Shown here one piece after another: positions 6,861 through 28,922 of a stretch of DNA of 64,000 bases. The stretch covers positions 74,162 through 138,161 of the forward strand of contig CAWIRY010000115.1 in assembly GCA_963838485.1 (NCBI GenBank), read 5' to 3'. How positions within the stretch are numbered: position 1 is the stretch's first letter; every line of letters starts with the position of its first letter. Source of the DNA: an uncultured delta proteobacterium. Lineage in GTDB: Bacteria; Desulfobacterota; RBG-13-43-22. Below the pieces are notes generated by a model. It saw only the letters and a program-made list of their open reading frames with translations. It made no database searches and was not told the origin of the DNA. Position numbers and translations under genes: made by a program.

Positions 6861-7000
6861 TGTGGTTACCTGTCGAAATTATTCTGAGACTGGTAATAAT
6901 AACTCGATGACCGGGGTCCATGCTTATTCCAGTATCCAGCATCAAGAATTCAGTATCTATCTGTTGCCATTAACCGAGCTTTGTGGTAAAAATCAATCAT

Positions 7001-7078
<78 letters not shown>

Positions 7079-7136
7079 TCTTATCAGTGGATTGGAAAGT
7101 CTGGATATTCAGGTTAAACAAGGTCAAAAGGGGAGC

Positions 7137-9868: not shown

Positions 9869-9956
9869 GCCTGGGTGGCGGAACTGGTAGACGCAAGGGA
9901 CTTAAAATCCCTCGGTCCTCGTGGCTGTACCGGTTCGATTCCGGTCCCAGGCACCA
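9869..9956 (+). tRNA. tRNA-Leu (UAA), likely integration site
   Basis: GCCTGGG acceptor, AGGGA-CTTAAAA-TCCCT anticodon arm, long variable arm, GGTTCGATTCC, CCA. Confidence 0.95.
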
Positions 9957-10045: not shown

Positions 10046-11185
10046 TCAATGTATTACCTGCTTATCTTCTAACTCAAGATTAGGCTCCTGTGCCCATGCT
10101 GTGCCCAAATTGTGCCCGTGTTCTAATTCCATGGGGTGCCCTTCCTTGAATTGGTCGATTTTTTCTTGATGATACACAACCATTTTCTTGGAGGCTTGTT
10201 TGAGGTCCTCTTCGTTGGTGATGTTATACCTTTCAAAAACGCTTCTGGTTTTATGGCCTGATACCAGCATGGCCACCTTCTCAGGAACACCAGCCCGGAC
10301 CATGTTTCTAACTGCCGTTCTTCTGAAGTCATGGAACAACCGGTCTTCAAGACCCAATGCCTTACAGGCTGTATCCCATGATCCCCGGAAGTCCTTAATC
10401 CTGTCTCCCGATTCCCCCCAAAAGACCCATTGACACTTGGGAAATTGATTGTCTCTCAAAATTTTCTGAAACCGGACGGTTTCCAATAGCTCCCCATCCA
10501 TGTAAATTATCCTGGATTCTTTGTTCTTGGTATCTTGTGGCTTCAAGTTTATCTTCCCTTCAATCAAATCAACTTGAGACCATCGAAGGCCAAGAATCTC
10601 TTCTTTCCTCATCCCGGTATGATAGGCCATGGTAATTACTGGCCTAAGATAAGAGGGGAGGGCATTTCTTAAAGCCTGATATTCATGGTGTTCAAAGAAT
10701 CCTTGTCTAACATTGTTTTCCTGCAATCTCGGAATAGAAGGGACCTGGTTTACTTTGGGTGGAGTCATCCCCTTGGCAAGGTTGAACATCCGTTTCAAAA
10801 AAGACAGTTCCCGGTTAATACTTCCGTTCTCGGCTTCCTCCTTCTGTCTTTGAAGAATATAGGACCTGACCTGTTCCGTGGTAACGTCTATAGCCCTCAT
10901 ACCTTCAAAGAAGGCTTTAAGGTGCCGAGAGCTTCTCTCTGCTCTGGGTAATGACTTCTTGCCATTTACCCGGTAATCGTTCAAGACATCTTGGGCCAGT
11001 TCGTCAAACCGGACCCGCTCGATCTTCAGGCCCGGAAAACGGTTTTCAATAACCTGGCCCTCCCTCATTTTAAGGAGGCGCTTGGCGTCCGTTTCTTTGG
11101 CTGAATGTGTACTTTCCCGGTAAGGTTTCCCGGCCCGATAGTACTTTATCCACAATACATTCCCCCTTTTAAAAATTGAACCCAT
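10046..11185 (-). CDS. Tyrosine recombinase/integrase
   Basis: HTGMRKEEI, TKNK, FHDFRRT, SGHKT..VFERY. Confidence 0.95.
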   Translation of the reverse strand: MGSIFKRGNVLWIKYYRAGKPYRESTHSAKETDAKRLLKMREGQVIENRFPGLKIERVRFDELAQDVLNDYRVNGKKSLPRAERSSRHLKAFFEGMRAIDVTTEQVRSYILQRQKEEAENGSINRELSFLKRMFNLAKGMTPPKVNQVPSIPRLQENNVRQGFFEHHEYQALRNALPSYLRPVITMAYHTGMRKEEILGLRWSQVDLIEGKINLKPQDTKNKESRIIYMDGELLETVRFQKILRDNQFPKCQWVFWGESGDRIKDFRGSWDTACKALGLEDRLFHDFRRTAVRNMVRAGVPEKVAMLVSGHKTRSVFERYNITNEEDLKQASKKMVVYHQEKIDQFKEGHPMELEHGHNLGTAWAQEPNLELEDKQVIH

Positions 11186-11490: not shown

Positions 11491-11712
11491 TTAATAGGTG
11501 AAGCGGGTCTTGTGTTGTTCAATGAAATGCTCCAAATCGTCAATGTCGAGGAAGTATCGTCTATCATACTTAACATAAGGCAAGGTCCCTTTCCAGATTA
11601 ATTCTCGGACAGCCACAATGGACCGGCCAAGATATACGGCTCCCTCGGCCACAGATAATAACCGGGGTTTGACATTCATAATCTTTTTTTGTTTAAATTT
11701 TTTCTCTTTCAT
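11491..11712 (-). CDS. Excisionase-like HTH_17 protein
   Basis: LLSVAEGAVYLG......LIWKGTLPYVK..RR. Confidence 0.8.
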   Translation of the reverse strand: MKEKKFKQKKIMNVKPRLLSVAEGAVYLGRSIVAVRELIWKGTLPYVKYDRRYFLDIDDLEHFIEQHKTRFTY

Positions 11713-11802
11713 TGGTAACGCCAGGGATTCTCTATCCTCTGCGCCTTTGTAAGTTAATAATAACTTAAGAATATTTCTATGTGTGTGCCCGGACTGTGCC
11801 CG

Positions 11803-12342
11803 CTATTTGTCAACTATTCCCCTACCCCTACGTCCCGATAGGCCCTTAATCTGGTTTTTTAACCCGCCCCAAGACACCCGACATGAAATGTTTGGCTTAC
11901 CATGCATAGGTTTCTCTTTAGATTCCCCTAGGGGACAATTATTTCGAACGGTTTCACACTTCTTTTTTGATCCTGATTTTCCCAAAAAATAGGCATCATG
12001 GAAACACCACCGCCCCGTACCCAAATAGTTCCATTTAGCCCCAGCAGGACAGGTCTCGCATTTGCCAGGTTCGATTTTGAGATCCAATTTCAACATTGAA
12101 ACCTTTTGACTTCTATTGATCATTCCTGCGGATGTAGTCGTGTCTTTGGTATTGAATACAGGTTCATATTTCTCTTCCCAGGGGATAGCTTCTTCTTTGG
12201 TGGTGTTGAGTAAGGGGAAATTGAGTATCCCTATTGCAAAAGGATCATCCTCTCGGGAATTCAAGGTGGAATTCTCTTTCACAATAGTGGGTGGTATCCC
12301 CATCTTCTGTAAAAAATCTGAACTAAAGATTGATTCTTTCAT
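11803..12342 (-). CDS. Hypothetical protein with Cys cluster
   Basis: 179-aa ORF co-oriented in module; CETCPA..WCFH..C....NCP. Confidence 0.5.
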   Translation of the reverse strand: MKESIFSSDFLQKMGIPPTIVKENSTLNSREDDPFAIGILNFPLLNTTKEEAIPWEEKYEPVFNTKDTTTSAGMINRSQKVSMLKLDLKIEPGKCETCPAGAKWNYLGTGRWCFHDAYFLGKSGSKKKCETVRNNCPLGESKEKPMHGKPNISCRVSWGGLKNQIKGLSGRRGRGIVDK

Positions 12343-12361
12343 CTTCTTGAAATCCTAAGAT

Positions 12362-12640
12362 TGGGATATATGGGATGTAAGTGGGACGTGGTTCAACTCG
12401 TTTTTAATAATTATTTCAACAATATAAATACTTTTATCCATATTTGTCCCACGTCCCAAGCAAAAACAACCCTTCCTATACAAAATATTTTTCACACACG
12501 TTTTTTTTATATTGTGTGTGGTGTTTTTTTCTCTTAAGACAAAATATTTTACATAACATGGGATATAATCATATAATTAATTGTATTTATTAAATATTAT
12601 ACGTCCCAATGACGTCCCATTCACGTCCCAGGCGTCCCAC
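12362..12640. promoter_or_regulatory. Putative replication origin: ACGTCCCA iterons flanking AT-rich core
   Basis: four (A/G)CGTCCCA copies 12601-12639, more at 12446-12458, inverted GGGA(C/T)GT at 12362-12389; directly after primase. Confidence 0.6.
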
Positions 12641-12641
12641 C

Positions 12642-15600
12642 CTAATAGTCAAGGGCATCAATTGTTTCCCGCTTAATCACAATCATCCGGTCTTTGGTCC
12701 CGTTAATATATCTCTGTAAAGTATAACCGCCATTTTTTTCGTTAGATTTTTCAATCCAGCCAAGTTCCTTCCAACCGGCTAAAATCGCATCGGGAGAATA
12801 CCCCATCCGTTTTAATTCACTTTTTAAAACAGTCCGTATAAATCCAATTTCGTCCCAATCTCGTAATTCATCCCATCTCCCTGCCCAGCCACCTGGCGGT
12901 GATTTCGGTTTCCCTTCATTGTCAGTTAAGTGCCGTCCCCAAAATCGATATTCGTTAGAAACGGCCCAGGAATATAAATCGTGAAAAGCCCTAACCTCAC
13001 CTGCTGCATCTATGGCCTCAGCGGCGATCATCGGCCAAACTTCATTTATTCGTTCTTCAAAGTCCCATGGAGTGATTCCTGCCTTCCAGGTCAGGATTTC
13101 GGCCATATGAAGTACTGCAAATCCTTGAGCCAGCCGACCTCCTTCGGTCGTACCCGCTATCCCTGCATATTTTTCGATAAATTTATGGTATTCATCCTTG
13201 AATTCTTTCCAGCTCGAACGATTTTTTAATAGCCAACTTATAAAGGCCGGCCCTGCATGACCGTAATTAAGGAGGAGTCTATTGTTGGTTTCATCTACCA
13301 CCCGGCGGATCCTCTCACTGTCTCTAATGAAAGGTGTTCCTCGAATTTCAAGGCATCTAACCCGGCTTCCTCCATCTTGCGTAAAAGAGGTTGCCGGGGC
13401 TTCTCCACTTGAGATCAGGACAGTCTGCCAAGTTCTTGTTCGAGCAAGACTCTGTGTGTTTCCCCGCCCTCGACCCCTTCCTTGCACAATGGCGTAGATC
13501 ATTTCGGCCACCATCTGTAGCTTCTTGGCCCGTTTTGTATCGTCCAAAATCAGTGGAATTCCGTTGAGAATGGCGCTGGCTCTCTCCAACCAGACCTTGG
13601 TGGCATCCCAGGACGACATTGCACCATCACCTTTTTCGTCCGGCAAACCCCATACACTTGCTGCTATACGGAGAATGGTGGTTTTTCCGGTTGAGGTACG
13701 ATTGGCAAAATCAACCACGAAATTGGGGGCATTCAAAATATGGAGTAAAGGAGCCGCAAAAGAAGCATAAAGCCCTATCAAAACCTTGGGGTAGTAGTGC
13801 AAAGGTCCAATTATTTTCTGCCATTCTTCGAAGGTCCCCAAAGATTTGAACCCATCGGCTATCTGTTCATCACCGGATGCCATTCCTCTGAAGGCTGTCC
13901 AGTCGTCCCGCCAATCTTCCGGCGCTAAATTTTCAATATTAAGCTCCGAGGTTAGTTCTCCATAGGGAGAGATCAGTTTCCGTCCCCACAAAAAACCTTT
14001 TCTCCCATCCTTGCCCTGCCAGCCCATATGATCAGAAACTCGCATTTGGGGAAGTGTTGCAATATTAATGGCCTCAAGTTGATGCAGGTAGGCTGCGATC
14101 TTAGTATTGTTATCCCCGGCGACAGGGAATCCATTTGAAGCCAGAGTCAAAAGCTTTCTTGGATCGAGGCAAATTCCTCGGTCTACGACTTTATCTATCC
14201 AACGATTGTTTCGGAACCAAGCCAGACGAAAATACTCAATACCTTCCTCGCTATTTCGAAACCTACCTGTAATTAAGATGGGAGCATGAGCAATGACTTG
14301 AGGGATCGGTATTGTCGTGCCCTGAATAAATTCTAAAGTTTCAGTTCCACTTAAGGATAAAGAATAATTCCGGGGAATAAGTAAGGCAGGGTAAGGGCAA
14401 CTGCAATCGGGAAGCATTTCACATGCTGTTTTTAATTGAGAAGCCTCTTCGGGTTTTAAACTTCGAAGTTTAAACCTTTCCTCTTTTGACTTGTCTTTGA
14501 TTAACTTCCGGAATACGTCGATGGTTCGCACGGGCAGGCCTTTATTTCTCATATCCCCCAGAGTGGCCTCAAAAAATCCAGGATCTTGGTTAGATACGAG
14601 AACAAAGGCTTGAAGTATCTCTGGGGACTCCATTGCCTTGATTAAGCTTTCTTTCAAATTCTCTGATTGCCTGATGCCTTTAACAACTTCAAGAGCGGAG
14701 GCAAAAACTAAATCAGTTCCATTCACACTTTTGGGAGCATTTGAGGTTCTAAAATTCGGCCTATAGGTTTCCCGAGTACCTGAAACGGCCTCCTCAATGA
14801 CCCCTTGACCGTAGGTTCGGCCATCACCGTAATGTTTTTCATCCCATTTTTCTCGAAACAAACCTGAGATCCTAAATAGTCGGTCAATTTGTTCCTGATT
14901 ATTACCCGTCCAAAAAGCCAACTTCCCACATAACGCAAGATCTGCCTCCGAATGAGAGGTGTACCCAGAAATATTACCTTCCCAAAGTTGGGTAAATCGA
15001 TCTCCATTAATGGCAGATTTGGCTTTCTTAATAACTTCAAGATCCTCAAGGGGCTGACTTTCTCTATACCTCTTGGGCTGGCTCTGGCTATTTGGGGTAG
15101 GGGTAGCATTGGTTCCCTGGCCGAATATCTCTTGGTGGATTTCATTGATTTCCGCTTGACGGTGTTCAACGGTCAACGGTGTGCCTTCAATGTGGTGGCC
15201 GGTAATGGTAAAGAAACGCCCCTTCTCGTAGACTTCGAAATCTCCTTTTTTATTCCCAGGTCCTGGAAGTTTTCCCTTAACAAAAATTCGGACTCCAGTT
15301 CCGGATGGTGAGATCTCAGAATATGAATTAAGCCGGTTGATTATATCCTGGGCCCATGGTTCGATTTCTCCCGTTTCAGAATTTCGGCAATGGTCCAAGT
15401 CAACGCCCGCAAAGCCATCAGCATCCGAAACAACAAAGCCGATCCCCTGAATTCTTACTCCGTTACCGTTGTTATTTTCTCGATAAAAGGCTGTAACTTT
15501 ATCGAAAGGGGACCAGGTCTCTGGGTCGTTTGTTTTTGCTTTTGCTCCAGTTTGAGCGTTTATTGGAATTTTGGTAGGCTTTCCCTTTTCTGTTTCTGCA

Positions 15601-15890
15601 AATTTCCAACAAACCCATTGAGGTAGGACTGTCAATTCTTTTGGGATTCGTTCGAAAAAAATATCACCATCCCGGACAGTTTCATCAGAAAGCCCAGGAT
15701 TGCGAAGGTCAGCGAGATGGTCGGGGTGAAAGTTAAGCGTCATTTCTCTCCCCCCGTCCTCGTTCCCGGTCTGCCAGGATTCAGCGGCTAATGACGAACC
15801 TGTTGGATTGAACGTGTGAAGAGGGCGATCAACTTGGGATAGAAATCTTTCTTTGTCCATATCGCCCTCCATTTTCTTTGCCCTTACCAT
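12642..15890 (-). CDS. Primase-polymerase (NrS-1-like) fused to DUF927 helicase
   Basis: PQWVCW, GVDLDHC, YSEISPSGTG, SEADLAL, RTSTGKTT Walker A, LILDD; true start may be 15860 or 15743. Confidence 0.85.
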   Translation of the reverse strand: MVRAKKMEGDMDKERFLSQVDRPLHTFNPTGSSLAAESWQTGNEDGGREMTLNFHPDHLADLRNPGLSDETVRDGDIFFERIPKELTVLPQWVCWKFAETEKGKPTKIPINAQTGAKAKTNDPETWSPFDKVTAFYRENNNGNGVRIQGIGFVVSDADGFAGVDLDHCRNSETGEIEPWAQDIINRLNSYSEISPSGTGVRIFVKGKLPGPGNKKGDFEVYEKGRFFTITGHHIEGTPLTVEHRQAEINEIHQEIFGQGTNATPTPNSQSQPKRYRESQPLEDLEVIKKAKSAINGDRFTQLWEGNISGYTSHSEADLALCGKLAFWTGNNQEQIDRLFRISGLFREKWDEKHYGDGRTYGQGVIEEAVSGTRETYRPNFRTSNAPKSVNGTDLVFASALEVVKGIRQSENLKESLIKAMESPEILQAFVLVSNQDPGFFEATLGDMRNKGLPVRTIDVFRKLIKDKSKEERFKLRSLKPEEASQLKTACEMLPDCSCPYPALLIPRNYSLSLSGTETLEFIQGTTIPIPQVIAHAPILITGRFRNSEEGIEYFRLAWFRNNRWIDKVVDRGICLDPRKLLTLASNGFPVAGDNNTKIAAYLHQLEAINIATLPQMRVSDHMGWQGKDGRKGFLWGRKLISPYGELTSELNIENLAPEDWRDDWTAFRGMASGDEQIADGFKSLGTFEEWQKIIGPLHYYPKVLIGLYASFAAPLLHILNAPNFVVDFANRTSTGKTTILRIAASVWGLPDEKGDGAMSSWDATKVWLERASAILNGIPLILDDTKRAKKLQMVAEMIYAIVQGRGRGRGNTQSLARTRTWQTVLISSGEAPATSFTQDGGSRVRCLEIRGTPFIRDSERIRRVVDETNNRLLLNYGHAGPAFISWLLKNRSSWKEFKDEYHKFIEKYAGIAGTTEGGRLAQGFAVLHMAEILTWKAGITPWDFEERINEVWPMIAAEAIDAAGEVRAFHDLYSWAVSNEYRFWGRHLTDNEGKPKSPPGGWAGRWDELRDWDEIGFIRTVLKSELKRMGYSPDAILAGWKELGWIEKSNEKNGGYTLQRYINGTKDRMIVIKRETIDALDY

Positions 15891-16125
15891 TATCTTTAGC
15901 AGTTAACATTTTCCCCCGAAGGGTCTTGACGCTGGTGGCGAAGTCAGCAACCCCGACTTCGGAATTCTGGTTGAACAGGTTCATGAGACCATAAACCCGA
16001 TCTGTTGCCGGAAAGGTGAAAACGACCTTTCCGCCTTTAGCCTCAAGCCTTGGCTCTATTCCATGTAGTGAGAGAAAAGAAGATAGGTAGATATCGAGAA
16101 GATTGATAATTTTTGTCTCTGCCAT
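15829..16125 (-). CDS. DUF5659-like small protein
   Basis: DIYLSSFLSLHG...KVVFTF; typical position upstream of primase. Confidence 0.55.
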   Translation of the reverse strand: MAETKIINLLDIYLSSFLSLHGIEPRLEAKGGKVVFTFPATDRVYGLMNLFNQNSEVGVADFATSVKTLRGKMLTAKDNGKGKENGGRYGQRKISIPS

Positions 16126-16270: not shown

Positions 16271-17566
16271 TTAATCGGACGTATCTTCCTGGGAATCTTC
16301 ACCAATAACATGAGAAAGATGTGCAGGGTCCGTTGTGTGCAAGGGCTTAAAAAGCATCATCCGACGATTAAAATCTTTCATAAAATCAATGAGATATTTG
16401 CATTCTTTTGTGCATTCTAATCCATGTTCAGGACAATTATAATCCTTCTGTTTCGTTTTCGTTGAGGGATAGGGCTTTCTATGGATAGCCCCATAAATGA
16501 GTTTAACCCCCTTTTCAATTTTATCTTCCCCCTTAACGGGCTGACCTATGACACCTTTCAAGGTCTTTTTGCCACGCATTGATTTAATTGTTTCTGTTAT
16601 TTCGCCAATTTTAATTTTTACATCCTCATATCGATCTGGATGTTTCCGCTCTGTAAAATCCAAGAGAGCAATCGCTCTGAAAGTGAAAGTATCCTTGCTG
16701 GGCTTTTGAGACCCTGCATCAATGTTTAGGTCATACCACTTAAGATATCGTTCAAAAGTGGAATTCTTTATGTGGTAAAGGAACATTAAGTCTTTTTGAT
16801 GGAAAATAGGTATAAAAAATTTCCCATCTGGTTCTTGTTGTTGTGAGTTTTTATACTTTTTGAGATGTTTTTTTACAGCCTCAATGACGATTTTTTTAAT
16901 TAACTTTTGGTCATTATTATCAATAAGTGAAAGGTTAATGAAAATTGGAAGTTTATAAATAGGGCTATACACTTTAGTGAGTGAAGGATCTCCAGGAGTG
17001 TCATCAATAATAACATCATCTAATGGCCACGCATTCTTAATAGGCGATGGAGTTATAGGCACTTCAACTGGTGAAGGTATATCGAATATTACAGACCATA
17101 GTGTATCAATGGGAAACACCCCAAAAAGGTGTGTCTTCTCTTCATCAATGACTGTATGAACCGAAGTATGTATTTCGCAATACCATTTTCGCTGGAGTTC
17201 CGTTACTGTGGCTTTTAGATTCACAATATAGTTTTCTCCATTCCCAAAATTCCGATTAAGCCTGAAACAATCAATTGAAAAAACGGAGGAGGAGTCTATG
17301 GGCGTTCCAAGTTTTCTTCGGGGAGGAAGCCAAATTCTCCTTAATGGCTCAAGATTTTCCATTATTATTTGGGAAAGTTTTTTAGAAAGAGGATCACGTT
17401 TAATGAGTTCAACTATTTGTGCCCCAATTTTTCGAGCAAACTCAGTCTGAGGAGCATTTTTGATGCTCTTTGTCCATTCTTTAATAAACGGAGCCTCACG
17501 TCCTGATAATTTTCTCATTCTAAGATAACTTTCAATTTGATATGGATCGTATATATGCGTTTCCAT
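16271..17566 (-). CDS. Hypothetical protein, possible transcriptional regulator
   Basis: 431-aa ORF from METHI; YLKWYDL..TFRAIA HTH-like segment and C-terminal CPEH...C...C. Confidence 0.6.
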   Translation of the reverse strand: METHIYDPYQIESYLRMRKLSGREAPFIKEWTKSIKNAPQTEFARKIGAQIVELIKRDPLSKKLSQIIMENLEPLRRIWLPPRRKLGTPIDSSSVFSIDCFRLNRNFGNGENYIVNLKATVTELQRKWYCEIHTSVHTVIDEEKTHLFGVFPIDTLWSVIFDIPSPVEVPITPSPIKNAWPLDDVIIDDTPGDPSLTKVYSPIYKLPIFINLSLIDNNDQKLIKKIVIEAVKKHLKKYKNSQQQEPDGKFFIPIFHQKDLMFLYHIKNSTFERYLKWYDLNIDAGSQKPSKDTFTFRAIALLDFTERKHPDRYEDVKIKIGEITETIKSMRGKKTLKGVIGQPVKGEDKIEKGVKLIYGAIHRKPYPSTKTKQKDYNCPEHGLECTKECKYLIDFMKDFNRRMMLFKPLHTTDPAHLSHVIGEDSQEDTSD

Positions 17567-17775
17567 TTGCCGTTTCCTTTTACCTAGGAGCCTGTCGGAC
17601 TTAAAAAATACATAATACATAAGAATTTCCGTTATATTAAATATAGGGAGAATTTTTTCCTTTCTTTGCTAAAAAATCGAAAAAATGATTCAGAATTAGG
17701 AATGGCCACAGCTATCCAGAAAGATGGGGGCTAAATATTATTTTTAATGCCAAAACCATTCCTATTAACTGTCAA

Positions 17776-18897
17776 CTCTGCAAGACTGATAATATCTTTC
17801 ATACCTTATTAATCAGGAGCAATAGGGTTTTAATCATGTTCTGGTGGACCTCTGCAAGACTGTTAATGTCTTTAATACATTATTTATCAGGAGCAATAGG
17901 GTTTTAATCATGTTCTGGTGGACCTCTGCAAGACTGATAATATCTTTCATACCTTATTAATCAGGAGCAATAGGGTTTTAATCATGTTCTGGTGGAACTC
18001 TGCAAGACTGATAATGTCTTTCATACCTTATTAATCAGGAGCAATAGGGTTTTAATCATGTTCTGGTGGACCTCTGCAAGACTGTTAATGTCTTTAATAC
18101 CTTATTTATCAGGAGCAATAGGGTTTTAATCATGTTCTGGTGGACCTCTGCAAGACTGATAATATCTTTCATACCTTATTAATCAGGAGCAATAGGGTTT
18201 TAATCATGTTCTGGTGGACCTCTGCAAGACTGATAATATCTTTCATACCTTATTAATCAGGAGCAATAGGGTTTTAATGATGTTCTGGTGGACCTCTGCA
18301 AGACTGTTAATGTCTTTAATACCTTATTTATCAGGAGCAATAGGGTTTTAATCATGTTCTGGTGGAACTCTGCAAGACTGATAATATCTTTCATACCTTA
18401 TTAATCAGGAGCAATAGGGTTTTAATGATGTTCTGGTGGACCTCTGCAAGACTGGTAATGTGTGTTAATACTTTTAGAACTCTGCGAGACTGATAATGTC
18501 TTTAATACCTTATTTATCAGGAGCAATAGGGTTTTAATCATGTTCTGGTAGACCTCTGCAAGACTGTTAATGTCGTTAATACCTTATTAATCAGGAGCAA
18601 TAGGGTTTTAATCATGTTCTGGTGGACCTCTGCAAGACTGGTAATTGCAAAACTGATAATATCTTTCATACCTTATTAATCAGGAGCAATAGGGTTTTAA
18701 TGATGTTCTGGTGGACCTCTGCAAAACTGTTAATGTCTTTAATACATTATTTATCAGGAGCAATAGGGTTTTAATCATGTTCTGGTGGACCTCTGCAAGA
18801 CTGATAATATCTTTCATACCTTATTAATCAGGAGCAATAGGGTTTTAATGATGTCCTGGGAGAACTCTGCAAGACTGTTAATAGCGTTAATACATTA
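17776..18897. repeat. Tandem array of 74-bp units (14 essentially complete + 3 partial)
   Basis: unit CTCTGCAAGACTGATAATATCTTTCATACCTTATTAATCAGGAGCAATAGGGTTTTAATCATGTTCTGGTGGAC starting 17776, 17850, 17924 ... 18791. Confidence 0.97.
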
Positions 18898-19489
18898 TTT
18901 TTGAATTAACTTGAAGATACAAACCGCGTGTATAAATCAACCTTGCTAAGATAAGCCATACCCTCCCACCACTACTTCCAACGGGTCCCATCTATCCATT
19001 TTTGAGACTCCTGTCGAATAATTTTTACCATGTCAGTGCATCAGGCAATAGATCCAATATTGCTATGTGCATTATAATTCTGGTATAAGGTTTGGGAAAA
19101 GATAGTTGCAGCGTTCCAGGCTGGTTTCACCCAGCCACTACCGAGGGGCATTTCGACCACCAAATTACTCTCCAAAAGTCCATCTGAAATGCCCCAGGAT
19201 CGACGATCTTCCTCCAGCCCATCTAAATACCTTCATTAAATAAGTATCTATAGTCGTTATGAAATTAACTTTTGAGGCCTTTATAGAGATTTTAGGGAAT
19301 GGTTTAGTAGCCACACTCCCAAAGTCGTGTATTTACTATTAGTATTTTCAATAACTTGCAAAGGGAAAAATAGAGAACACTGCTTTTTTGCAACCTGCTT
19401 TCTATGGTTTTTGTGCATTTTGCGGAAGAATTGTCACAGAATTAAAATGGGATATCATCCGGGAAATCACCGTCGGGCTGATGATCGTT

Positions 19490-19671
19490 GAGAGTGGCTC
19501 CGGTTCTACAACCAGGAACGCCCTCATCAAACCTTTGGACAACTAACCCCGGATGAGGTATATTATAGCTTACCTTCTCCAATAACCCAGGCAGCCTGAT
19601 GCCTATATTAACAACCCTTACTCAGAGCTTATTCCCATGTTCAGGCTGTCCAACTACTTGGGTCCACCTAC
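19490..19671 (+). pseudogene. IS3-family transposase C-terminal remnant with right end
   Basis: EWLRFYNQERPHQTFGQLTPDEVY..AA* then TGTCCAAC..GGGTCCACC terminal-like sequence. Confidence 0.65.
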
Positions 19672-19759
19672 CTATACTGTCAAAAAAGTTTATATAAACT
19701 GTCTTGTTAATATTAGACATATTGAGTCTTCCCTTTCAATATCTGTGAACAAATAAAAA

Positions 19760-20542
19760 TTACACTTGTTTTTTCTCTGGCGGAATTGGGGAACCATTTT
19801 TATCCCTAACCCAAATCCAACCTTCTTTCTCAGCCAATTTATCATTTTCTGGATTAAGAGCAAGCCCATCCAAGAAATCAGCACCAGCAAGGACACAGAT
19901 TATGGCATCAAGTTCATTATCATCCTCTATAGTTAAGGAAGAGAGGTTTGTTGATGGCCTGATTTTCCCCAATTTTTCAAGGATGTCATTACAAAGGTCA
20001 ATATTCTTTTCTCCTTTATATCCAGATGAAGTCACACCATGAGAAGTCAATGTTGCCGCCGGATACACTTCAATCACTCCAGTGCCAGTAAAATTAGGCT
20101 TCCAGACCAGGGGGAAATCACGATTGGTTTTTTTCCGTACCTCGTTTAATAGATTAAGGGCAGCATGGGCCGTTCGGGCAATTTTATCTGCTCCTACATC
20201 CAACGATTGTTTTCCAAATTTATTTTTAATGAAACGATCGGTCTCTCTACGAAAAAGCTGGTTAGAATCAACCGGAAGTGGGTTGCCTGCTATGTGCTTA
20301 GATAATTGTTTCCCCATATCTATAGGCCAACCTAATGGGGCATCAAAGGCAAGCAGTATCCTATCTGACTGATTTAATGTCCCTTTGATAGTAATTATTA
20401 TTGTCTTTGTTAAAAACTTGTTAGAACCGTGTTTTGAGATCAAATTTAGCTGGCGATCACGTTCAGACCATACACCGACTGCAACCCCTGTGTTTTTATC
20501 CTCTACGGCGCAATCTATACCAATAATGAGGGTTTTATTCAT
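19760..20542 (-). CDS. DUF429 predicted RNase H-fold nuclease
   Basis: IIGIDCA, AFDAPLGWP, RRETD, IEVYPAATL, DAIIC. Confidence 0.8.
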   Translation of the reverse strand: MNKTLIIGIDCAVEDKNTGVAVGVWSERDRQLNLISKHGSNKFLTKTIIITIKGTLNQSDRILLAFDAPLGWPIDMGKQLSKHIAGNPLPVDSNQLFRRETDRFIKNKFGKQSLDVGADKIARTAHAALNLLNEVRKKTNRDFPLVWKPNFTGTGVIEVYPAATLTSHGVTSSGYKGEKNIDLCNDILEKLGKIRPSTNLSSLTIEDDNELDAIICVLAGADFLDGLALNPENDKLAEKEGWIWVRDKNGSPIPPEKKQV

Positions 20543-20660
20543 TTTTAGCTCCCCAAGTTTTAACGATAAGAATATCCAATTCTGATTTCTACCCCGCAGT
20601 AAATAATGGTAGTTAACCTAAAAACCGAAAGAAATCAACTAAGACCCGATAGACTTTACC

Positions 20661-21005
20661 TTATCCCCAAAATATACCGGTCGGATCACGATCTAGCTCC
20701 TTCAGAAGATCATCAAAATCAGTGCTCGGTTGAATCAAGTCATAAAGCTGCCATCTGTTATCCTTGTCAATAGAGTATAGCTGCCATTGTTTTTTATCAT
20801 TATCAAATCGAAATTGAGCTACGCGATTTTGAGTCCAGATGGAAGGATCCTGGAAATATGGTCTTGTTTCAATGAGGGTAACTTTAGTCCCGTCAATTTT
20901 GAAGATCAACTCTCCCATATCACGGGCATGTTCTGGAATACGGTTTATACAGTATTGGGAGAGTTTTTCTTTGATTAATTTCTTGGTAAATTCTGGTAGG
21001 GACAT
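20661..21005 (-). CDS. DUF3024 family protein
   Basis: W.LY..D...RW..Y, ELDRDPTGIFWG terminus. Confidence 0.8.
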   Translation of the reverse strand: MSLPEFTKKLIKEKLSQYCINRIPEHARDMGELIFKIDGTKVTLIETRPYFQDPSIWTQNRVAQFRFDNDKKQWQLYSIDKDNRWQLYDLIQPSTDFDDLLKELDRDPTGIFWG

Positions 21006-21009
21006 TAAT

Positions 21010-21279: not shown

Positions 21280-21462
21280 GAATTTGTGCTAAGAGTAATT
21301 GAAATTTAAAGGCGGCTCCCTCAGGTAGTCAGATTTAAAAGGGGGAAAATCAAACAATCAAAGGAGAGTCACCAAAAAAAATTACAACGAATTGGGGAAA
21401 AGGGAAAGTAAAAACTGCTGAAAGCTCTATCTGGGAACCTTTATTTTTCGGACGCAAATTAT

Positions 21463-22101
21463 TTAAAAATTTTCTTCCATCCAATCTTCCATTTCGAGAA
21501 TTTCCATGTTGAATAACCCTCTCAGGTTCTCAAAAATCCGTTCATACGCCGCCAGTCGACTTTCCAGTTCACCTATGTGTTCAGCTAATTGTTGGGCAAC
21601 ATAAAAAGCGGTTTGTTCGGATTCACTCTGTCCCCCTTTGGAGACCCGTAGAACCGGTAACTTAACCTTTTTCCCTTTGGGTGCTTTCTGGCGAACACTT
21701 GAGGCCTTGATCTTCTTCTTTGGTGCTTTAGCCCTTTTCTTCCGAGCTTTTTTAGGAGGAGGAGAGGCTTGTTTCTCGACTACCGAGGTCAAATCCTTTT
21801 CTTCAAAATGGACCTTTTTAGTATCACGGGAAAGACATTTATTCAATACCGGCAGGGTAATCGGTTTAACAATGGGAAAGGACTCAACCTTAACCCCCTT
21901 GCCCTTTTTCCCTGAAATATACCCATTTTCCAAAAGATTGCCTTTCAGGGTGGTAGTATACCGTTTTAAAGTTATGCCGGAATATTGGTCTTTGAACTTC
22001 TTCTCCAGCAGCTTCCCCAGTTCTTTATAGTTAATCTCTGTTTTCCCTTTAAGATAATTCAGCCAAGCTTGCAGATATTGTTTCAGGTTGCTTTTTTTCA
22101 T
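21463..22101 (-). CDS. Basic hypothetical protein with Lys/Ala/Pro-rich linker and C-terminal coiled coil
   Basis: 212 aa, PPPKKARKKRAKAPKKKIK; RBS AGGAAAGAG. Confidence 0.7.
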   Translation of the reverse strand: MKKSNLKQYLQAWLNYLKGKTEINYKELGKLLEKKFKDQYSGITLKRYTTTLKGNLLENGYISGKKGKGVKVESFPIVKPITLPVLNKCLSRDTKKVHFEEKDLTSVVEKQASPPPKKARKKRAKAPKKKIKASSVRQKAPKGKKVKLPVLRVSKGGQSESEQTAFYVAQQLAEHIGELESRLAAYERIFENLRGLFNMEILEMEDWMEENF

Positions 22102-22349
22102 ACTCTTTCCTTTCTAAATTACCGTCTCATGTTAGATTCTAATATTTTTAGTAAATCATACTGAAAGAAAATACAAATGTCAAAAACAAATGAAAGAACT
22201 AAAGATTCAAGAAAGGCAGCATTTAATCTGTGAATCCTCGAACCCTGTTATCGTGTTAGATATCCAGGATTAGGTTGAATGGATAGGACGTGGAAGGGAT
22301 GAGGAATCAAAGAAGAACAGGTAGAAAGAAGAAAAGGGCAATGGGTTTT

Positions 22350-22679
22350 TCATTTTGACCTCCGCCGTTTTATGGGGATAATGTTTCCCACCCCTTTTTT
22401 TTCACTATCCGTTCCCATTTCGGTTATTCCAGGACTTAATTCCTTTTTTTCACTATCCGTTCCTATTTCGCTTATTCCCGGTTTTAATTCCTTTTCGAGA
22501 GGAAAACTCACTTTCTGGGCGGCGATTTCCCGGAGGGCTACAACCACTTCCCTGTTTTTCGATTGGACCAATGGGGCGGCGCCGGCCCGTAGTTGCTTAA
22601 TCCTTTGAAAGGCCAAATGAATCAAGGAAAACCGGTTGGGTACTTGCTCAAGGCAATCTTCGATAGTTATTCTGGCCAC
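22350..22679 (-). CDS. rpoZ: RNA polymerase omega subunit paralogue with duplicated C-terminal tail
   Basis: ARITIEDCLEQVPNRFSLIHLA..R..QL..GA.PLV..KN.EVVVALREIA; GTG start with AAGGAG. Confidence 0.85.
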   Translation of the reverse strand: MARITIEDCLEQVPNRFSLIHLAFQRIKQLRAGAAPLVQSKNREVVVALREIAAQKVSFPLEKELKPGISEIGTDSEKKELSPGITEMGTDSEKKGVGNIIPIKRRRSK

Positions 22680-23427: not shown

Positions 23428-26400
23428 TCAACTTGCCATCTCAACAAATTGGTCAAGACATTCCAGCCAGACTATCATTGATTTCCACGCCTCATCTGCA
23501 TTGTTGAGTTTCAATTCGACATGCGCTACCCTTGTATTACGGAATTCGTTGACTTTCTCTAATTTGTAATAGAGGCTTTTCATTTTTGACCCTGAAAACA
23601 ATTTAGCCACGTCTTTCCATACGCCTGTTGCACCTAAGCCACCGTCTTTTGCATATCCTAAGCAAAAGAGTAATGTGCCTAGTTTCATTATAGAGCGCCC
23701 GAATACCAAATTATCTTTGAGGTAACGGCCATATTTTTCGAGCTGAATGCGATCTCTTGTTTTAAGCGTATCCAGATAGGGACTAAAATAATTTTCTCGA
23801 TCCTGCTGACTGGTAGGTATTTTAGGTGTAAGTTGCTTGTCAAGTATTCGAATAGCATAATCATCAAGCGGATGAAGCAACGGTTGAAAAGCATGTCCAA
23901 ACTCTGGCATTCCAGAACGGATAGCGTGATCCAGAAGAGTTATTGCCTGCCTCATTTGTCCTTCTACAGCAGTAGGAGCCTTCTGAATACCTGCTTCCCA
24001 AAGGACACGGGAAAACAACTCTTCGGCCTCCTTCTGAGCTGTTTCTTCGAAGAGCGGTAATTCCTGTTGGCCGGTTTTCGCCTCTTCTATCAATCCTCGA
24101 AGAGATGGTTCACAGGCCCTTGATAATTCTTCGATCGTTGATGCCGCACTCTGCTGAAACAGGTGATAAGGGATATATAAAAAGCGCCATTTAACCCTTC
24201 CCTTTGAACCGGCCTTACACCATTCAACGGCAGCCCGGACCTTTACGAGAACGAGATTGTCAACCTTGCCCTTAAGCTCTACGAGGTAATAACTGTTTTC
24301 CTTGCTGCGAATGAAGAAATCCGGGACATACAAGGCTCGATGTCCATCTGGCTTCATATAATCGATCATCAGTTTTTGTGGACCTGCATTCTTCGCAGAA
24401 GCGATAACGTCGGATGCATAATCACAGAAATCAACAAATGCCCTTTCAAATTCATTTTCGCAGGGGACCAGATTAAACATGGTTTTTTTTGCTTGGACAG
24501 CGGGCCTCTTGTCGTTACTGGTAGCCTGATAGGGTTTCCATAAGGATAAAATCTGCCCTTGGCTGATCCGCCGCCGCTCCTTTTTTCGGACGATTTTGTC
24601 TAGAATCAGGGGTGTGAAGGTGGCACGGATGTGTTCCATCACATCGATGTCGCGCATACGATGATCGACATCCCCGGCGTAAAGGTCTACTTCACGTTCA
24701 AAAAGGACCTTCGAGATGAATTCCTCAATCACGGGTGTTAAGATACTGTGTGGATTGCTGACATGGCAGGCTCTTCCCAATTCCTGTGCAAAATAACTCG
24801 CCGCTGACCATGCGTTACTTAGAAGACCTACGTCCACCTTCATCTTGGCGACAACTTCGTCAGTAAAAAGATGCCTCTCCTCATATTCAATAGATTCAGT
24901 TTTTATCTTACCAATCGGCAGGCGGTAAAAGCGTTTCTTTGTCTCGAAAAACTCTCTTACCTCATCAATGGACAACCCCTTTAATTCTGTGCTCATTTCC
25001 ACAGAATCCGAAATTAAAGGGATTTCAATTTCCAGATCCTTAACAGGCTTTTTCTCATGATCAACAAAAATGGTCACAGTTTGTTTGAATGCTTCACGAA
25101 TGGGCAGGTAAGCAATATCGAGACCTTCTTGGGCCAGTTCCTCTTCATATAATTTTCGGAAGGCGGGATGATGGACGACAGTGACTATTTCCGGAGTCTC
25201 GGCAAGTGGGAACATGCGCCTCAGTCCTCGTCCTAATGTCTGTTCAGGAAGGATGCCGGACTTTGCGGAATATGGACGCAAAGGAATGATGGTTGTAACG
25301 TTCTTGACATCCCAACCTTCGCGAAGCATCATGACGGAAACCACACAACGAAATTTACTGTCCTTTTTATCTAGTTCGCGGGACATCTCACGTAATTCCC
25401 GAAGGTCTTCCGGTTTCATGCCCGTTTCCTTTTCCACGAATTCCTTGACTTCACGGCCACCCCGGATGAAGGTCTTTATTTTTCCCTTCAAGCGGGTATG
25501 GATATTCAAAACCCGTCCTTTCAGAAGAGGAAACTGTTTACTGTCCAGATAGTCCGTGATTTCATTCGCTGCGTCTGCGTCTTCAGTCATCACAAAAAGG
25601 ATGGGTTTTCTGACCTTATTCAGTTCCTCATAAGTCTTTTCATAACGTTGATAACCAAGTTGAAGGTGCATATTATATCGCTGATGGGCGGGTGTTCTAT
25701 TATCTCCCCTGATGACCAACGCATCTGATTCTCCAATGACAGGAACCTTAACGATGCCAGCATCTACTGCTTCGCCAAGAGGAAAATCACAAATGATATG
25801 ATTAAAAAGATTACCGTCGTTGTATTTTGGTGTCGCAGAAAAATCCAATTGAAGCCGCACTCCCCGATTCCCCTTACTTAGGCTTTGACTATGCAAAGCA
25901 TTAATAGCTCTGTTCCAAGCAAGATCAGGATCATGGAGGTGATGAGCCTCATCATTCATAACCATGACGCAAGGATGGCTTGAAATTCTCTCTCGGAGAG
26001 CAGCGCCTGTGTCCAGTGCCTTAGCTTTCTTGACAGGAGGGCCGAAGATAGATGCCTTATCGTCATCTCCTTCGTCATTTTCATCACGTGATTCATAGAG
26101 GCGGTGAATGTTTGTCAGATAAATTGTGCCCCTTGTGCTTGAGCCACCGGGATTATCCTGTAGTATGACTTGCATTTGAAAGTCATTAACCCAATCTGTA
26201 GGCAGGAGGGGATCTTTGTAGAAAATTGAACAGTTCTCAAAATCATCTTTTAATCGTTCATAAACTGTCAAATTTGGTGCAATAATAACAAAATGCTGGG
26301 GCAGGTTCGAATCGGTTTCACGGAGCCGATGGAAATAACTCCATACGATTGCCAGACTCATTACTTTGGTTTTCCCACCTCCCGTTGCTATTTTACAACA

Positions 26401-26853
26401 ATCCTTTAGCCATCGATCGTCTTCAGGGTTGATGCCAAGGGCAAGATCGGCGATGCCCTCGCTGCCGAATTCAAACATAAGTTCCATTACATTGCTGATT
26501 CTGCGCATCTCGCACAAATAAATGATGGTTTCAATCGCTTCTCTCTGTGCCCAATGATACCGAAAGGCTAAAGATTCACCTTCGCCGTTTAATATCAAAT
26601 GTTCCGATTTGAACCAGTAATTAAGCAAGGATATTGAAGTTTCGCTAATACTCGCATAACCACCTCGTCGCCATCCATCGACTTCTGCTCGAATCGATCT
26701 TACCAATGCACATTTACTGGGGCGGCGGCCAGGTTCAATAATTGCCGATGCACCCGGTACCGAGTTAGGAAGACGATGCATAATCGGCTCTTCCCACGGC
26801 TTGAACAATGGTTCAAGAGCGGCTGCATTTTTTTCCGTGACCTCAAAAGCCAT
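23428..26853 (-). CDS. res: Type III restriction enzyme Res subunit
   Basis: ATGGGKT, DEAHH, LREGWDV, EQTLGRGLR, YVPDF..VELKG. Confidence 0.9.
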   Translation of the reverse strand: MAFEVTEKNAAALEPLFKPWEEPIMHRLPNSVPGASAIIEPGRRPSKCALVRSIRAEVDGWRRGGYASISETSISLLNYWFKSEHLILNGEGESLAFRYHWAQREAIETIIYLCEMRRISNVMELMFEFGSEGIADLALGINPEDDRWLKDCCKIATGGGKTKVMSLAIVWSYFHRLRETDSNLPQHFVIIAPNLTVYERLKDDFENCSIFYKDPLLPTDWVNDFQMQVILQDNPGGSSTRGTIYLTNIHRLYESRDENDEGDDDKASIFGPPVKKAKALDTGAALRERISSHPCVMVMNDEAHHLHDPDLAWNRAINALHSQSLSKGNRGVRLQLDFSATPKYNDGNLFNHIICDFPLGEAVDAGIVKVPVIGESDALVIRGDNRTPAHQRYNMHLQLGYQRYEKTYEELNKVRKPILFVMTEDADAANEITDYLDSKQFPLLKGRVLNIHTRLKGKIKTFIRGGREVKEFVEKETGMKPEDLRELREMSRELDKKDSKFRCVVSVMMLREGWDVKNVTTIIPLRPYSAKSGILPEQTLGRGLRRMFPLAETPEIVTVVHHPAFRKLYEEELAQEGLDIAYLPIREAFKQTVTIFVDHEKKPVKDLEIEIPLISDSVEMSTELKGLSIDEVREFFETKKRFYRLPIGKIKTESIEYEERHLFTDEVVAKMKVDVGLLSNAWSAASYFAQELGRACHVSNPHSILTPVIEEFISKVLFEREVDLYAGDVDHRMRDIDVMEHIRATFTPLILDKIVRKKERRRISQGQILSLWKPYQATSNDKRPAVQAKKTMFNLVPCENEFERAFVDFCDYASDVIASAKNAGPQKLMIDYMKPDGHRALYVPDFFIRSKENSYYLVELKGKVDNLVLVKVRAAVEWCKAGSKGRVKWRFLYIPYHLFQQSAASTIEELSRACEPSLRGLIEEAKTGQQELPLFEETAQKEAEELFSRVLWEAGIQKAPTAVEGQMRQAITLLDHAIRSGMPEFGHAFQPLLHPLDDYAIRILDKQLTPKIPTSQQDRENYFSPYLDTLKTRDRIQLEKYGRYLKDNLVFGRSIMKLGTLLFCLGYAKDGGLGATGVWKDVAKLFSGSKMKSLYYKLEKVNEFRNTRVAHVELKLNNADEAWKSMIVWLECLDQFVEMAS

Positions 26854-26855
26854 GA

Positions 26856-28922
26856 TTAAACCTCCACGTCGATAACTGTCGTGGTATCTACACCAAAAAC
26901 ATCAATCACCTTGACGCAAATCTTCTTATTGCCCTTATTCTTGTATTCCCAACCAATGTATGTTCTTTCTTTTAACGAGCGATCCTTTCTGGTTCGAAAA
27001 TCCTGCCAATGATGTTCAAATGGCTTGTTTGCGCTCCAGTCAAAATCAACAGCCCAGAAATCAATGAAATCAAAAGGTGATTTTACCGCGCGTTCCCTCA
27101 AGGCGGCCATTTCAGATTCTGGAGCTTCCGCCAACGCCGGGGAGAAACGATTCAATTTGACATCAATCTTCTTTCCCTTCTTGACAGCTTTTACCTCCAG
27201 GGCTCCAGCCTCAAAGAACTGGCATTCCCTCCGGTTCGGTTCCATGATTTCTCTTGGGATGTATTTCAACTTGATGTTCAGACCGCTTTCTGCCTCGATA
27301 GCCTGTTTCTTATGGGATAGTTCCATTTCAAATTCCCATGCAAGACAATGAAGCTCTCGTCCTCCGGCAGCACTCGCCGCTTCTGATATTGTGCGGAGTT
27401 CTTCAAAGGTAAAAATGCCATCAATATGATGCACGTGAACAAAAGCCCCGTGTTTTGTTCCGTGCAGAAGGGAATTTGATGATAACTGTAAAGGAGTTGC
27501 TTTATAGAATTGAAGAACAATTTGGCGATGTTCCGTATCGGCACCCTTGAGGCGCTCCATTTGCCACCATTGGCGTTCGTAACGACCAAGATTATAGACG
27601 TCGAAGGAGCGATAAGGCTTGCTATCTGCATGCAGCTCCCGCTGAACTTGAATGAGGCGTTTACGGCTAACGTGTATGGCATAACGACCTAAATCTACAC
27701 CTATCCAACGTCGGTCGAGTTTCTCGGCAACAGCCATTGTTGTACCAGAACCAGAAAAAAGGTCAGCAACGAGGGCGCCTTTGTCAGAGGATGCACGGAT
27801 AATGCGCTCTAAAAATGGCTCAGATTTCTGCGTCACATAAGCATTTGGGGCATTGTCGTAAGCATAGATATCAGACCAATCGGTATCGGCTGCGATTTCC
27901 TCTTTAGGTTCGACCCAGTAGTAACAGCGTGTTGCCCCTGGCTCGCGCTTGATAAATCTCTTCGATTTCCCAGTTTTTATCCAGTAATCGAAGAGGGTCA
28001 TCTTGTCAGAATACATATCTAGGTATTCTTGGTAGTTCTGCACTGCGAGTTCCGCTTTGTCTCTTGTCCAGCGCCACTGTCCATCCGCAAGATGTATTCC
28101 CAGCAGCGGATAACGTAATGTTGGACGGTCAGCATTATTCCAAAAATTGTTCCACTGTTCGTGATTTGATTCGGGTGCCTTTGTCAATGGAGCACGAAAT
28201 CGAGCAGATATATTCATTGAATACCATAGAACTGAGTCACAAGCGATATTCAAACGAGATACCGTGTCAAACTGATTCTGTAAGTTTTTTGTTTTTCTCT
28301 TCGCATAGATTTCATTCCTGAAATTATCACTTCCAAACACATCATCCATTAATAAGCGTAGGGATGAATTGACTCGATAATCACAATGCACATAAATGCT
28401 ACCTTTTTCACTAAGCAAATCTCGCATCATTGTAAGGCGTTCGTACATCATGTGCAGGTAGGAATCCGTACCTTTACCCCAAGTATCCCGATAAGCTACA
28501 GATTCTAGGATAGACTGCTCCTTCTGTACGGCTTCGCCTTCTTCCCCTAGTTGCACCTGCATGGTGAAATCAGCACCCACGTCAAAAGGAGGATCATTGT
28601 AAATCAAATCAACCTTGCCTCGGAACTGGTCCAACAAAGCGGCCATTGCCAGCTTATTGTCCCCCCAGATGAGAATGTTACGAAAATCATCTTGATGAGC
28701 CTTCATTGAATCAAATAACAAACCCTGGGCAATACTGCGGTCATGGGGCTCATCTATGGCTTCGATTCGTTGCAACGGTAAAGGGGTTGAGGGAAGTTTA
28801 ACGGGACGCCGGTTCCCATATTCATCGTATTTGCCTTCCCATACCAATCCAGTTTTCAATTTCGATAATGGGTGCGGATTTTCCGGACCCCACGTATGAT
28901 TAGACATGTTTTTTTTATCCAT
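26856..28922 (-). CDS. mod: Type III R-M DNA methyltransferase Mod subunit
   Basis: DPPF motif IV precedes DLFSGSGTT motif I (beta class); directly upstream of res. Confidence 0.92.
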   Translation of the reverse strand: MDKKNMSNHTWGPENPHPLSKLKTGLVWEGKYDEYGNRRPVKLPSTPLPLQRIEAIDEPHDRSIAQGLLFDSMKAHQDDFRNILIWGDNKLAMAALLDQFRGKVDLIYNDPPFDVGADFTMQVQLGEEGEAVQKEQSILESVAYRDTWGKGTDSYLHMMYERLTMMRDLLSEKGSIYVHCDYRVNSSLRLLMDDVFGSDNFRNEIYAKRKTKNLQNQFDTVSRLNIACDSVLWYSMNISARFRAPLTKAPESNHEQWNNFWNNADRPTLRYPLLGIHLADGQWRWTRDKAELAVQNYQEYLDMYSDKMTLFDYWIKTGKSKRFIKREPGATRCYYWVEPKEEIAADTDWSDIYAYDNAPNAYVTQKSEPFLERIIRASSDKGALVADLFSGSGTTMAVAEKLDRRWIGVDLGRYAIHVSRKRLIQVQRELHADSKPYRSFDVYNLGRYERQWWQMERLKGADTEHRQIVLQFYKATPLQLSSNSLLHGTKHGAFVHVHHIDGIFTFEELRTISEAASAAGGRELHCLAWEFEMELSHKKQAIEAESGLNIKLKYIPREIMEPNRRECQFFEAGALEVKAVKKGKKIDVKLNRFSPALAEAPESEMAALRERAVKSPFDFIDFWAVDFDWSANKPFEHHWQDFRTRKDRSLKERTYIGWEYKNKGNKKICVKVIDVFGVDTTTVIDVEV

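Follow-up and report, generated by a model that had tools for sequence, protein, structure and literature searches.

Bacterial minisatellites include the 40-bp 'dru' repeats in SCCmec and the mycobacterial MIRU loci. Phage P4 has a second cis replication region, crr, made of long repeats located several kb from its origin, and these repeats contain the same iterons as the origin itself. In SaPI and SCC/Cch elements the origins are short repeats found directly downstream of the helicase gene (PMC7581432). Viral arrays of crRNA-like RNAs with short pseudo-spacers have also been described (bioRxiv 10.1101/2024.10.29.618823; PMC10651486); these Cracr and Racr arrays have two or three different pseudo-spacers and retain the structure of the repeat. 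We have analyzed a tandem array of 74-bp units in the draft genome of an uncultured delta proteobacterium (212 contigs, 93.8% complete). It is located in a stretch of 64,000 nucleotides, referred to here as the window. The array is unusual for a bacterial genome, and it can be compared with each of the systems mentioned above.

Structure of the array and its units

The array extends from 17776 to 18897 of the window (no strand assigned) and was delimited by TRF together with the splitting of its sequence at the CTGCAAGACTG motif, which marks the start of each unit. It is a head-to-tail repetition of 74 bp with 14 full units and three partial ones, namely one of 38 bp at about 18444, one of 15 bp at about 18630 and a terminal one that runs from about 18867. 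TRF found a period of 74 with 9.2 copies, 94% matches and a score of 1235 over 17776-18459, and two further period-74 blocks beyond it that reach 18899. Units 1 to 9 are three copies of a 222-bp higher-order repeat in which two unit types alternate as A-B-A. Actually, the mean number of mismatches among these nine units was 4.1, 3.0 and 1.17 at lags 1, 2 and 3, respectively, and this minimum indicates that a 222-bp A-B-A trimer was amplified three times. Two pairs of units are identical in sequence (1 with 6, and 7 with 9), so that the copy number cannot be fixed by short reads.

When the window array was considered together with two sister arrays of the same genome (see next section), the 26 full units corresponded to 21 distinct sequences, which are shuffled combinations of the variants at about a dozen sites, most of them biallelic. 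Variable columns were 21 out of 74, some of them in the 3' third of the unit. A core of about 22-23 bp was identical in 14/14 window units and had one singleton change, in a unit of the C133 array, over the 26. The longest strictly invariant run was 16 columns (P ~0.06 under random placement of the variable columns; P ~0.04 when singletons are ignored, this last figure being a rough estimate and not a computed value). The invariance of the core is only mildly unusual and statistically weak. Nor was the phasing of AA/TT across the unit distinctive, with a power of 28 at harmonic 7 and of 30 at harmonic 9.

The array does not encode protein. All six reading frames are closed within about 1.3 units, and a coding repeat was ruled out by the stop codons present in every frame; the one ORF listed within the array (50 aa) was judged to be a product of chance. 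Each unit has an AGGAG about 16 nt ahead of an ATG, a distance that is probably too large for a ribosome-binding site.

An earlier note on this DNA had described 14 full and three partial units around an invariant core, with a period that is not a multiple of 3 and with the two types ordered as A B A A B A A B A. From the unit split and the TRF results the array is real, and that description stands with two corrections. The number of units was confirmed, with a middle fragment of 15 bp at about 18630 in place of the 18 bp at 18628 given before; the order is correct for the first nine units, and every frame of the repeat is closed. The corrections affect the core, whose invariance is no more than mildly unusual, and the variation, which had been placed in positions 14-36 and is not confined there.

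The host island and the sister arrays

The presence of a tRNA-Leu gene, a tyrosine integrase, a primase-polymerase/DUF927 helicase and a low G+C content (0.37-0.40 at 16-24 kb of the window) supports the location of the array within an integrated, presumably self-replicating genomic island. The tRNA-Leu(TAA) gene (9869-9956, plus strand) is the likely integration site, and the integrase gene adjoins it (10046-11185, minus strand). A second att copy was looked for at 11200-45000, where the tRNA-Leu region turned out to have no repeat of at least 13 nt. The next genes, all on the minus strand, code for the primase-polymerase/DUF927 (Cch-like) helicase of 1082 aa with a C-terminal HTH_56 domain, assigned as the replication protein (12642-15890), for a small DUF5659 protein (15829-16125) and for a 449-aa protein (P0001, 16271-17620) of a rare family without a Pfam match. 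The C-terminal half of this last protein is conserved and carries a Cys/His motif, and the protein is absent at the other two array sites. It was assigned to no Pfam, PADLOC or PHROG family and matched hypothetical clusters only in the Atlas; its AlphaFold2 model had a mean pLDDT of 60 and gave no Foldseek match in the PDB at E<=0.001. To the right of the array there are about 860 bp without a credible gene, followed by the genes of a DUF429 protein (19760-20542, minus strand; PADLOC candidate PDC-S44) and of a DUF3024 protein (20661-21005, minus strand; PADLOC candidate PDC-S43). Both are cargo in common with the C133 element, with about 96-98% identity in the case of DUF429. Farther right, the island has a type III restriction-modification pair, a group II intron and fragments of insertion sequences.

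Directly past the stop codon of the helicase gene there is a probable origin of replication (12382-12639, minus strand) made of TGGGACG iterons. Four copies at 9-11-bp spacing are followed by an AT-rich stretch and then by two more copies, one of them direct and the other inverted. The 64-kb window has nine TGGGACG sites, of which six are within 12382-12639 and none is within the array. The array lies 1.9 kb upstream of the helicase gene start and about 5 kb from the iteron origin. The same layout is present past the helicase gene of a sister element on C20, with a different repeat, and in the C133 element, with repeats of its own. Besides, relatives in other genomes (e.g. L042 and L053) have short repeats of 11-12 bp just past the helicase gene. 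The position of the iteron cluster of the island matches that published for the SaPI/Cch origins (PMC7581432). The iterons change with the helicase, whereas the 74-bp array does not. The array was ruled out as a replication origin or a crr-like element by its wrong position and by the absence of the helicase iteron.

The same genome contains two other arrays, of 8 and 5 full units, with flanks in common with the window array. The one at C133:4811-5437 has 8 full units. In the one at C117:35755-36227 four full units are in register, a fifth has a decayed start, and two units of 38 bp are present as well. Two of the three arrays retain the short 38-bp unit. The order of the units differs among the three, and the terminal partial unit and the right boundary sequence (18898-18916, no strand assigned) are common to all of them. 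The AT-rich left flank (17602-17775, no strand assigned) is about 93-96% identical to its C133 copy, and its end is a decayed sequence that resembles a unit. It contains a motif of about 55 bp that is conserved at all three arrays, C117 included. This conserved motif contains a promoter-like site (17612-17640, minus strand; TTAATA, 17 nt, TATTAT), a match to the consensus only, which is directed away from the array and towards the gene of the 449-aa protein.

The surroundings of the three arrays were compared as well. The window and C133 are about 96% identical over 17602-21008, a segment that includes the flank, the array, the gene-poor segment and the DUF429 and DUF3024 genes. The helicases of both islands are only 56% identical, against the value of about 96% for the arrays and right flank. 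To the left of the C133 array there are unrelated proteins of 291 and 327 aa where the window has the 449-aa protein; the 291-aa protein matched hypothetical clusters only in the Atlas. The C117 array is located between a serine recombinase gene, split by an insertion sequence, and a transposon, and there the homology ends at the right boundary sequence, beside insertion-sequence remnants. The genes on the left side are wholly different at the three sites, and the comparison of neighbours revealed no protein common to the three. The three sites differ in the number and composition of their units over near-identical flanks, indicating that the array turns over faster than its surroundings. We also observed that C117 codes for a class A penicillin-binding protein and the window for MurJ, which identifies the host as a bacterium.

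The repeat was absent by blastn from 20 other genomes of the family. With up to three mismatches allowed, the core had 27 occurrences in this genome and one lone match in 400 other genomes of the phylum. Searches with the repeat gave 0 exact matches in genome_contigs, viral_contigs and metagenome_contigs, and the degenerate repeat/core pattern gave 0 matches in viral_contigs. A comparable long-period non-coding array was found at 0/33 metagenome loci with homologues of the 449-aa protein, and a comparable array at 0/23 loci with helicase homologues. Repeats of other periods were seen at a few of these loci: one and the same 102-bp-period repeat, about 2 kb away, at 3/33 loci of the 449-aa protein and a 150-bp-period repeat at 1/23 helicase loci.

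Pieces of the array were present in small shares in five public DNA runs from two studies, with no RNA run among them. The four runs that were mapped gave short unitigs only, leaving parts of the array uncovered and with none of the listed pieces spanning the whole stretch. The distinctive 38-bp junction was found in three runs (X1, X3 and X4) from two studies. In X1 there were loose ends running into other flanks. In X2 a unitig of 222 nt with a depth of 2 joined the left flank to the last unit, skipping 1015 bp, which may reflect a short allele and equally a collapse of the graph. For the near-identical 222-bp part, the number of copies is that of the assembly, with short unitigs as the read support.

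RNA, partition and CRISPR features

The array has no RNA structure. Stretches of three units folded no better than shuffles (z = 0.07 for the plus strand and 1.21 for the minus strand), and Rfam gave no family at the gathering threshold or at E<=10 except for one chance miRNA row; a structured RNA was rejected on the basis of these z values (~0 to +1.2) and of the empty Rfam search. A single terminator-like site was detected, and it is inside the gene of the 449-aa protein, with none between the array and the neighbouring genes. At the three sites no conserved ORF was found downstream of the array, whichever strand was considered. The lack of an adjoining terminator and of a conserved following ORF led us to discard a type III toxin-antitoxin system of the ToxI type. 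At 19098-19071, some 175 bp beyond the right end of the array, the minus strand has a 10/12 match to the promoter consensus, and the number of promoter-like sites in the region was not above that of shuffles. As for a plasmid centromere of the parS/parC type, no partition ATPase or centromere-binding genes were found among the scanned neighbours of the three sites. An ORF of 130 aa on C117 gave ParB-N-like matches that were weak and extended also to methyltransferase fusions.

The only CRISPR array of the genome is found on C86 and has 8 repeats of 36 nt and 7 unique spacers, with a period of 70-73. A Cas_GSU0053 gene lies there amid transposase genes as a cas remnant, and Cas1 was not found in the genome (93.8% complete). 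The core of the 74-bp unit aligned with the C86 repeat at 19/23 identical positions with one gap, for a Smith-Waterman score of 14 (shuffles 7.7 +/- 1.3). This score was reached by 3/5000 repeat shuffles, 0/2000 unit shuffles and 40/20000 random genomic 36-mers, and P was ~0.002 in this targeted test. The 28 nt past the last C86 repeat were collinear with the variable part of the B-type unit with a score of 15, reached by 10/4000 GC-matched genomic 28-mers, a similarity that was noticed post hoc. Adding the adjoining degenerate repeat raised the score to 17-18, and 17 was reached by 16/10000 GC-matched 47-mers.

On the scale of the genome the picture is different. A nhmmer profile of the 26 units run against the masked genome had no C86 CRISPR match in its best 100, and the best one within the C86 array had E=700. 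Of 25110 sampled 100-nt genome tiles, 34 reached the Smith-Waterman score of 18 that corresponds to the C86 flank, with a maximum of 24, and blastn of the C86 locus against the arrays found nothing at E<1. The C86 repeat forms a hairpin with a stem of 8 bp and a fold energy of -10.2 kcal/mol, and the equivalent stretch of the unit gives -1.6 kcal/mol (z +1.06). The likeness of the core to the CRISPR repeat is therefore weak and inside the genome-wide background, with the hairpin lost. None of the C86 spacers matches the islands, the CRISPR-DR families of Rfam have no match in the array, and the neighbours scanned at the three array sites include no cas domains. A CRISPR array proper was discarded, as the earlier note had already done, on the grounds that the segments between cores are homologous variants and not unique spacers, and besides there are no cas genes nearby and the repeat is not palindromic.

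A proposed minisatellite and its alternatives

The best explanation, to which we give a probability of about 0.5, is that the array is a lineage-restricted non-coding minisatellite (VNTR) of mobile elements, turned over by recombination and with no function of its own. As in minisatellites, the repeat is non-coding and head-to-tail with a unit within the range of ~10-100 bp, and its variant units have a mosaic and higher-order arrangement. The three paralogous sites have 14, 8 and 5 full units, and the one hint of a different number between strains is the 222-nt unitig of X2. The array occupies a non-coding junction with replication genes on one side and defence-type cargo on the other. A junction module, made up of the left flank with its outward promoter-like motif, the array and the fixed terminal partial unit, would have reached at least three mobile-element contexts of this genome by copying or recombination. 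Within it, unequal crossing-over, replication slippage and gene conversion among the units would make the array grow, shrink and become partly homogenised. Such turnover could yield the 222-bp higher-order repeat, the biallelic mosaic, a deletion-derived 38-bp unit and the different numbers of full units. We infer that the array itself has no sequence-specific function; it may serve at most as an AT-rich spacer, prone to recombination, located upstream of the leftward promoter-like site. Two observations can be read in the opposite direction. The identical ends of all the arrays and the 38-bp unit found in two of them could reflect constraint rather than shared descent, and three occurrences restricted to mobile elements may point to a selected role beyond the reach of these tools.

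The interpretation offered in the earlier note was partly supported. Its placement of the array inside a mobile element agrees with the tRNA-Leu, the integrase, the helicase and the low G+C, and one of its suggestions, a recombination-driven variable locus, fits well with the 222-bp repeat, the mosaic of biallelic sites and the variation in unit number. The proximity to a replication module is correct as a position, but the functional link that it implied is weakened by the iteron origin 5 kb away. The search of the unit that it proposed did find the two sister arrays in the genome, although nothing identical turned up in the three public collections, and arrays beside homologues of the 16271-17620 gene, which it also suggested looking for, were not found at any of the 33 loci. 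No support was obtained for an undescribed array system with processed RNA or a dedicated partner, given the folding values, the empty Rfam search and the lack of a common protein.

An unlikely alternative is an array of protein-binding sites read by a trans factor, be it centromere-like, for copy-number 'handcuffing' or as a large operator for the leftward promoter. The factor would come from the host or from another part of the element. The core would be the putative site, and since 74 bp correspond to about seven helical turns, all the sites would be set on one face of the helix. The near-invariance of the core (one change in 26 units), its vicinity to the conserved promoter-like motif, the occurrence only in mobile elements and the precedent of the second cis region of P4 with its long repeats are all consistent with such an array. 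However, that invariance is statistically weak and the helical phasing of the A/T tracts is not clear. No partition or DNA-binding gene is common to the three sites, and the ParB-N-like matches of the C117 ORF are weak and shared with methyltransferase fusions. The TGGGACG iteron of the helicase is absent from the array, helicases with 56% identity coexist with arrays and right flanks at about 96%, and related elements do without such an array (0/23 and 0/33 loci). A processed non-coding RNA array apart from CRISPR, with ToxI-like antitoxin or sponge units released as pieces of about 74 nt, appears very improbable. The tandem non-coding architecture with a fixed register, the promoter-like motif in the conserved left flank and the location in a mobile element beside candidate defence genes would suit it, but the fold energy is that of shuffles on both strands, Rfam has no match, no conserved ORF or terminator-like site accompanies the array, and the best-conserved promoter-like site is directed away from it. 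Besides, the unit is about twice as long as known type III antitoxin repeats.

A relationship with CRISPR is distinctly unlikely, either as a decoy of the Racr or Cracr kind that titrates Cas proteins or as a decayed, spacer-homogenised relic of a captured CRISPR fragment. In its favor are the alignment of core and repeat, beyond shuffles and most genomic 36-mers, the collinearity of the 28 nt past the last C86 repeat with the B-type unit, the similar periods (74 vs 70-73) and the minus-strand promoter-like site (10/12) at ~175 bp from the right end. A cis-encoded partner would be unnecessary, which is consistent with the lack of a protein common to the sites, and the viral crRNA-like arrays already described provide a precedent (bioRxiv 10.1101/2024.10.29.618823; PMC10651486). 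Nevertheless, the unbiased profile scan did not single out the C86 locus, 34 genome tiles score as high as its flank, blastn is silent, the flank similarity was noticed post hoc and the unit has lost the hairpin of the repeat. In the predicted crRNA sense, the end of the pseudo-spacer that matches would probably be PAM-distal. The genome lacks a detectable Cas1, the cas remnant of C86 lies amid transposase genes, and neither the CRISPR-DR families nor the C86 spacers connect the array or the islands with CRISPR. The specific version in which the units imitate the end of the host CRISPR (repeat tail, short pseudo-spacer and degenerate repeat) as multiplexed decoys that titrate or redirect type I Cas proteins, in the form of RNA or of DNA, is quite improbable. 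A mis-assembled or inflated repeat is extremely improbable. The draft state of the genome (212 contigs), the identical units 1/6 and 7/9, beyond short-read copy counting, and a read support made of unitigs only would allow it, but there are three separate arrays inside contigs, with unique flanks and distinct unit orders, and pieces of the 38-bp junction come from X1, X3 and X4 in two studies.

Comparison with described repeat systems

Like CRISPR arrays, the 74-bp array has a conserved segment at regular spacing and an AT-rich flank, but unlike them it lacks unique spacers and a palindromic repeat and has no cas genes in its vicinity. With the Racr and Cracr arrays it has in common the repeat-like units, the presence in mobile elements without cas genes and a period close to that of repeat plus spacer. 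There is also a weak similarity to the host repeat and its terminal pseudo-spacer. It differs from the described arrays in having about 15 near-identical units, no hairpin and a similarity that stays within background. If the CRISPR likeness were true, a decoy array of about 15 units in satellite-like islands would extend a counter-defence described so far with two or three units.

P4 crr is similar in that several kb of DNA, including the primase-helicase gene, separate its long direct repeats from the origin. Unlike crr, the array has no origin iterons, and nearly the same array accompanies helicases that are only 56% identical. The iteron origins of SaPI and SCC elements are also repeats, and they too belong to replicative integrative elements whose helicase is self-loading; in contrast to them, the array is upstream of the operon, 5 kb off and iteron-free. 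The iterons past the DUF927 helicase, which differ between sister elements, support a replication model of the SaPI/SCC type in a distant bacterial lineage.

Returning to the minisatellite, our preferred reading, the array would be an example of a minisatellite with higher-order structure that moves with a non-coding module between integrative elements. It could serve as a strain marker and as a warning in assembly work, and it is not a new system. Compared with dru and MIRU, it has a longer unit of 74 bp, a 222-bp higher-order repeat, three copies in one genome and a module with fixed boundaries. Otherwise it is like these VNTRs, being a non-coding head-to-tail repeat of tens of bp with variant units whose order differs between copies and, like dru in particular, it is carried by an integrative element that encodes a DUF927/Cch-type helicase.

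A probable replication origin and the state of the sister elements

Directly past the stop codon of the primase-helicase gene (12642-15890, minus strand) of the tRNA-Leu-integrated island starts a cluster of iterons (12382-12639). It opens with four copies of TGGGACG spaced 9-11 bp apart, followed by an AT-rich stretch, beyond which the same motif is found once more in direct and once in inverted orientation. This region is the probable iteron-type replication origin of the island. The same layout, with different repeats, appears in the sister elements of the source genome on contigs C20 and C133. The tyrosine integrase of the C133 element (11563-12698 of that contig) is split into two overlapping ORFs of 201 and 198 aa, and the serine recombinase (4685-7941) of C117, the other contig with a sister 74-bp array, is broken by an IS3-like insertion. 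Therefore, the sister elements on C133 and C117 both look decayed.

A rare protein family

The 449-aa protein encoded on the minus strand at 16271-17620 belongs to a rare family, with only 18 relatives among 5.8 billion proteins, none of which carries an informative name. Conservation in the family lies in the C-terminal half, where W-Y-D is invariant and both an F-R..A segment and a C..H...C...C motif occur. AlphaFold2 modelled the protein with only moderate confidence (pLDDT 60), and the model gave no match to solved folds at E<=0.001.

Island cargo and repeated sequences

Downstream of the DUF429/PDC-S44 (19760-20542) and DUF3024/PDC-S43 (20661-21005) genes, both PADLOC defence candidates, the array-bearing island carries a type III restriction-modification pair (23428-28922) made up of a res-like protein of 1141 aa and a methylase of 688 aa. 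A group II intron RNA (31438-32160, minus strand; Rfam D1-D4 and domain V-VI models) is located close to the island's far part. The stretch at 21280-22361, containing a 212-aa ORF (21463-22101), has no Pfam, PADLOC or PHROG family match. It has copies of about 89-96% identity elsewhere in the genome, on four contigs or more (C91, C97, C100 and C191), and probably represents a mobile sequence present in multiple copies. The island also holds a 109-aa ORF (22350-22679) matching the RNA polymerase omega/Rpb6 family, within which there is a 48-bp tandem duplication (2.1 copies, 22396-22495); a 78% identical copy is present on C97.

The CRISPR array of the genome

Cas1 was not found in the source genome. 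Its sole CRISPR array is located on contig C86 (6558-7132), with eight repeats of 36 nt and seven spacers; about 22 nt separate the last repeat from a terminal degenerate repeat. The same contig carries a Cas_GSU0053 gene amid three transposase genes.
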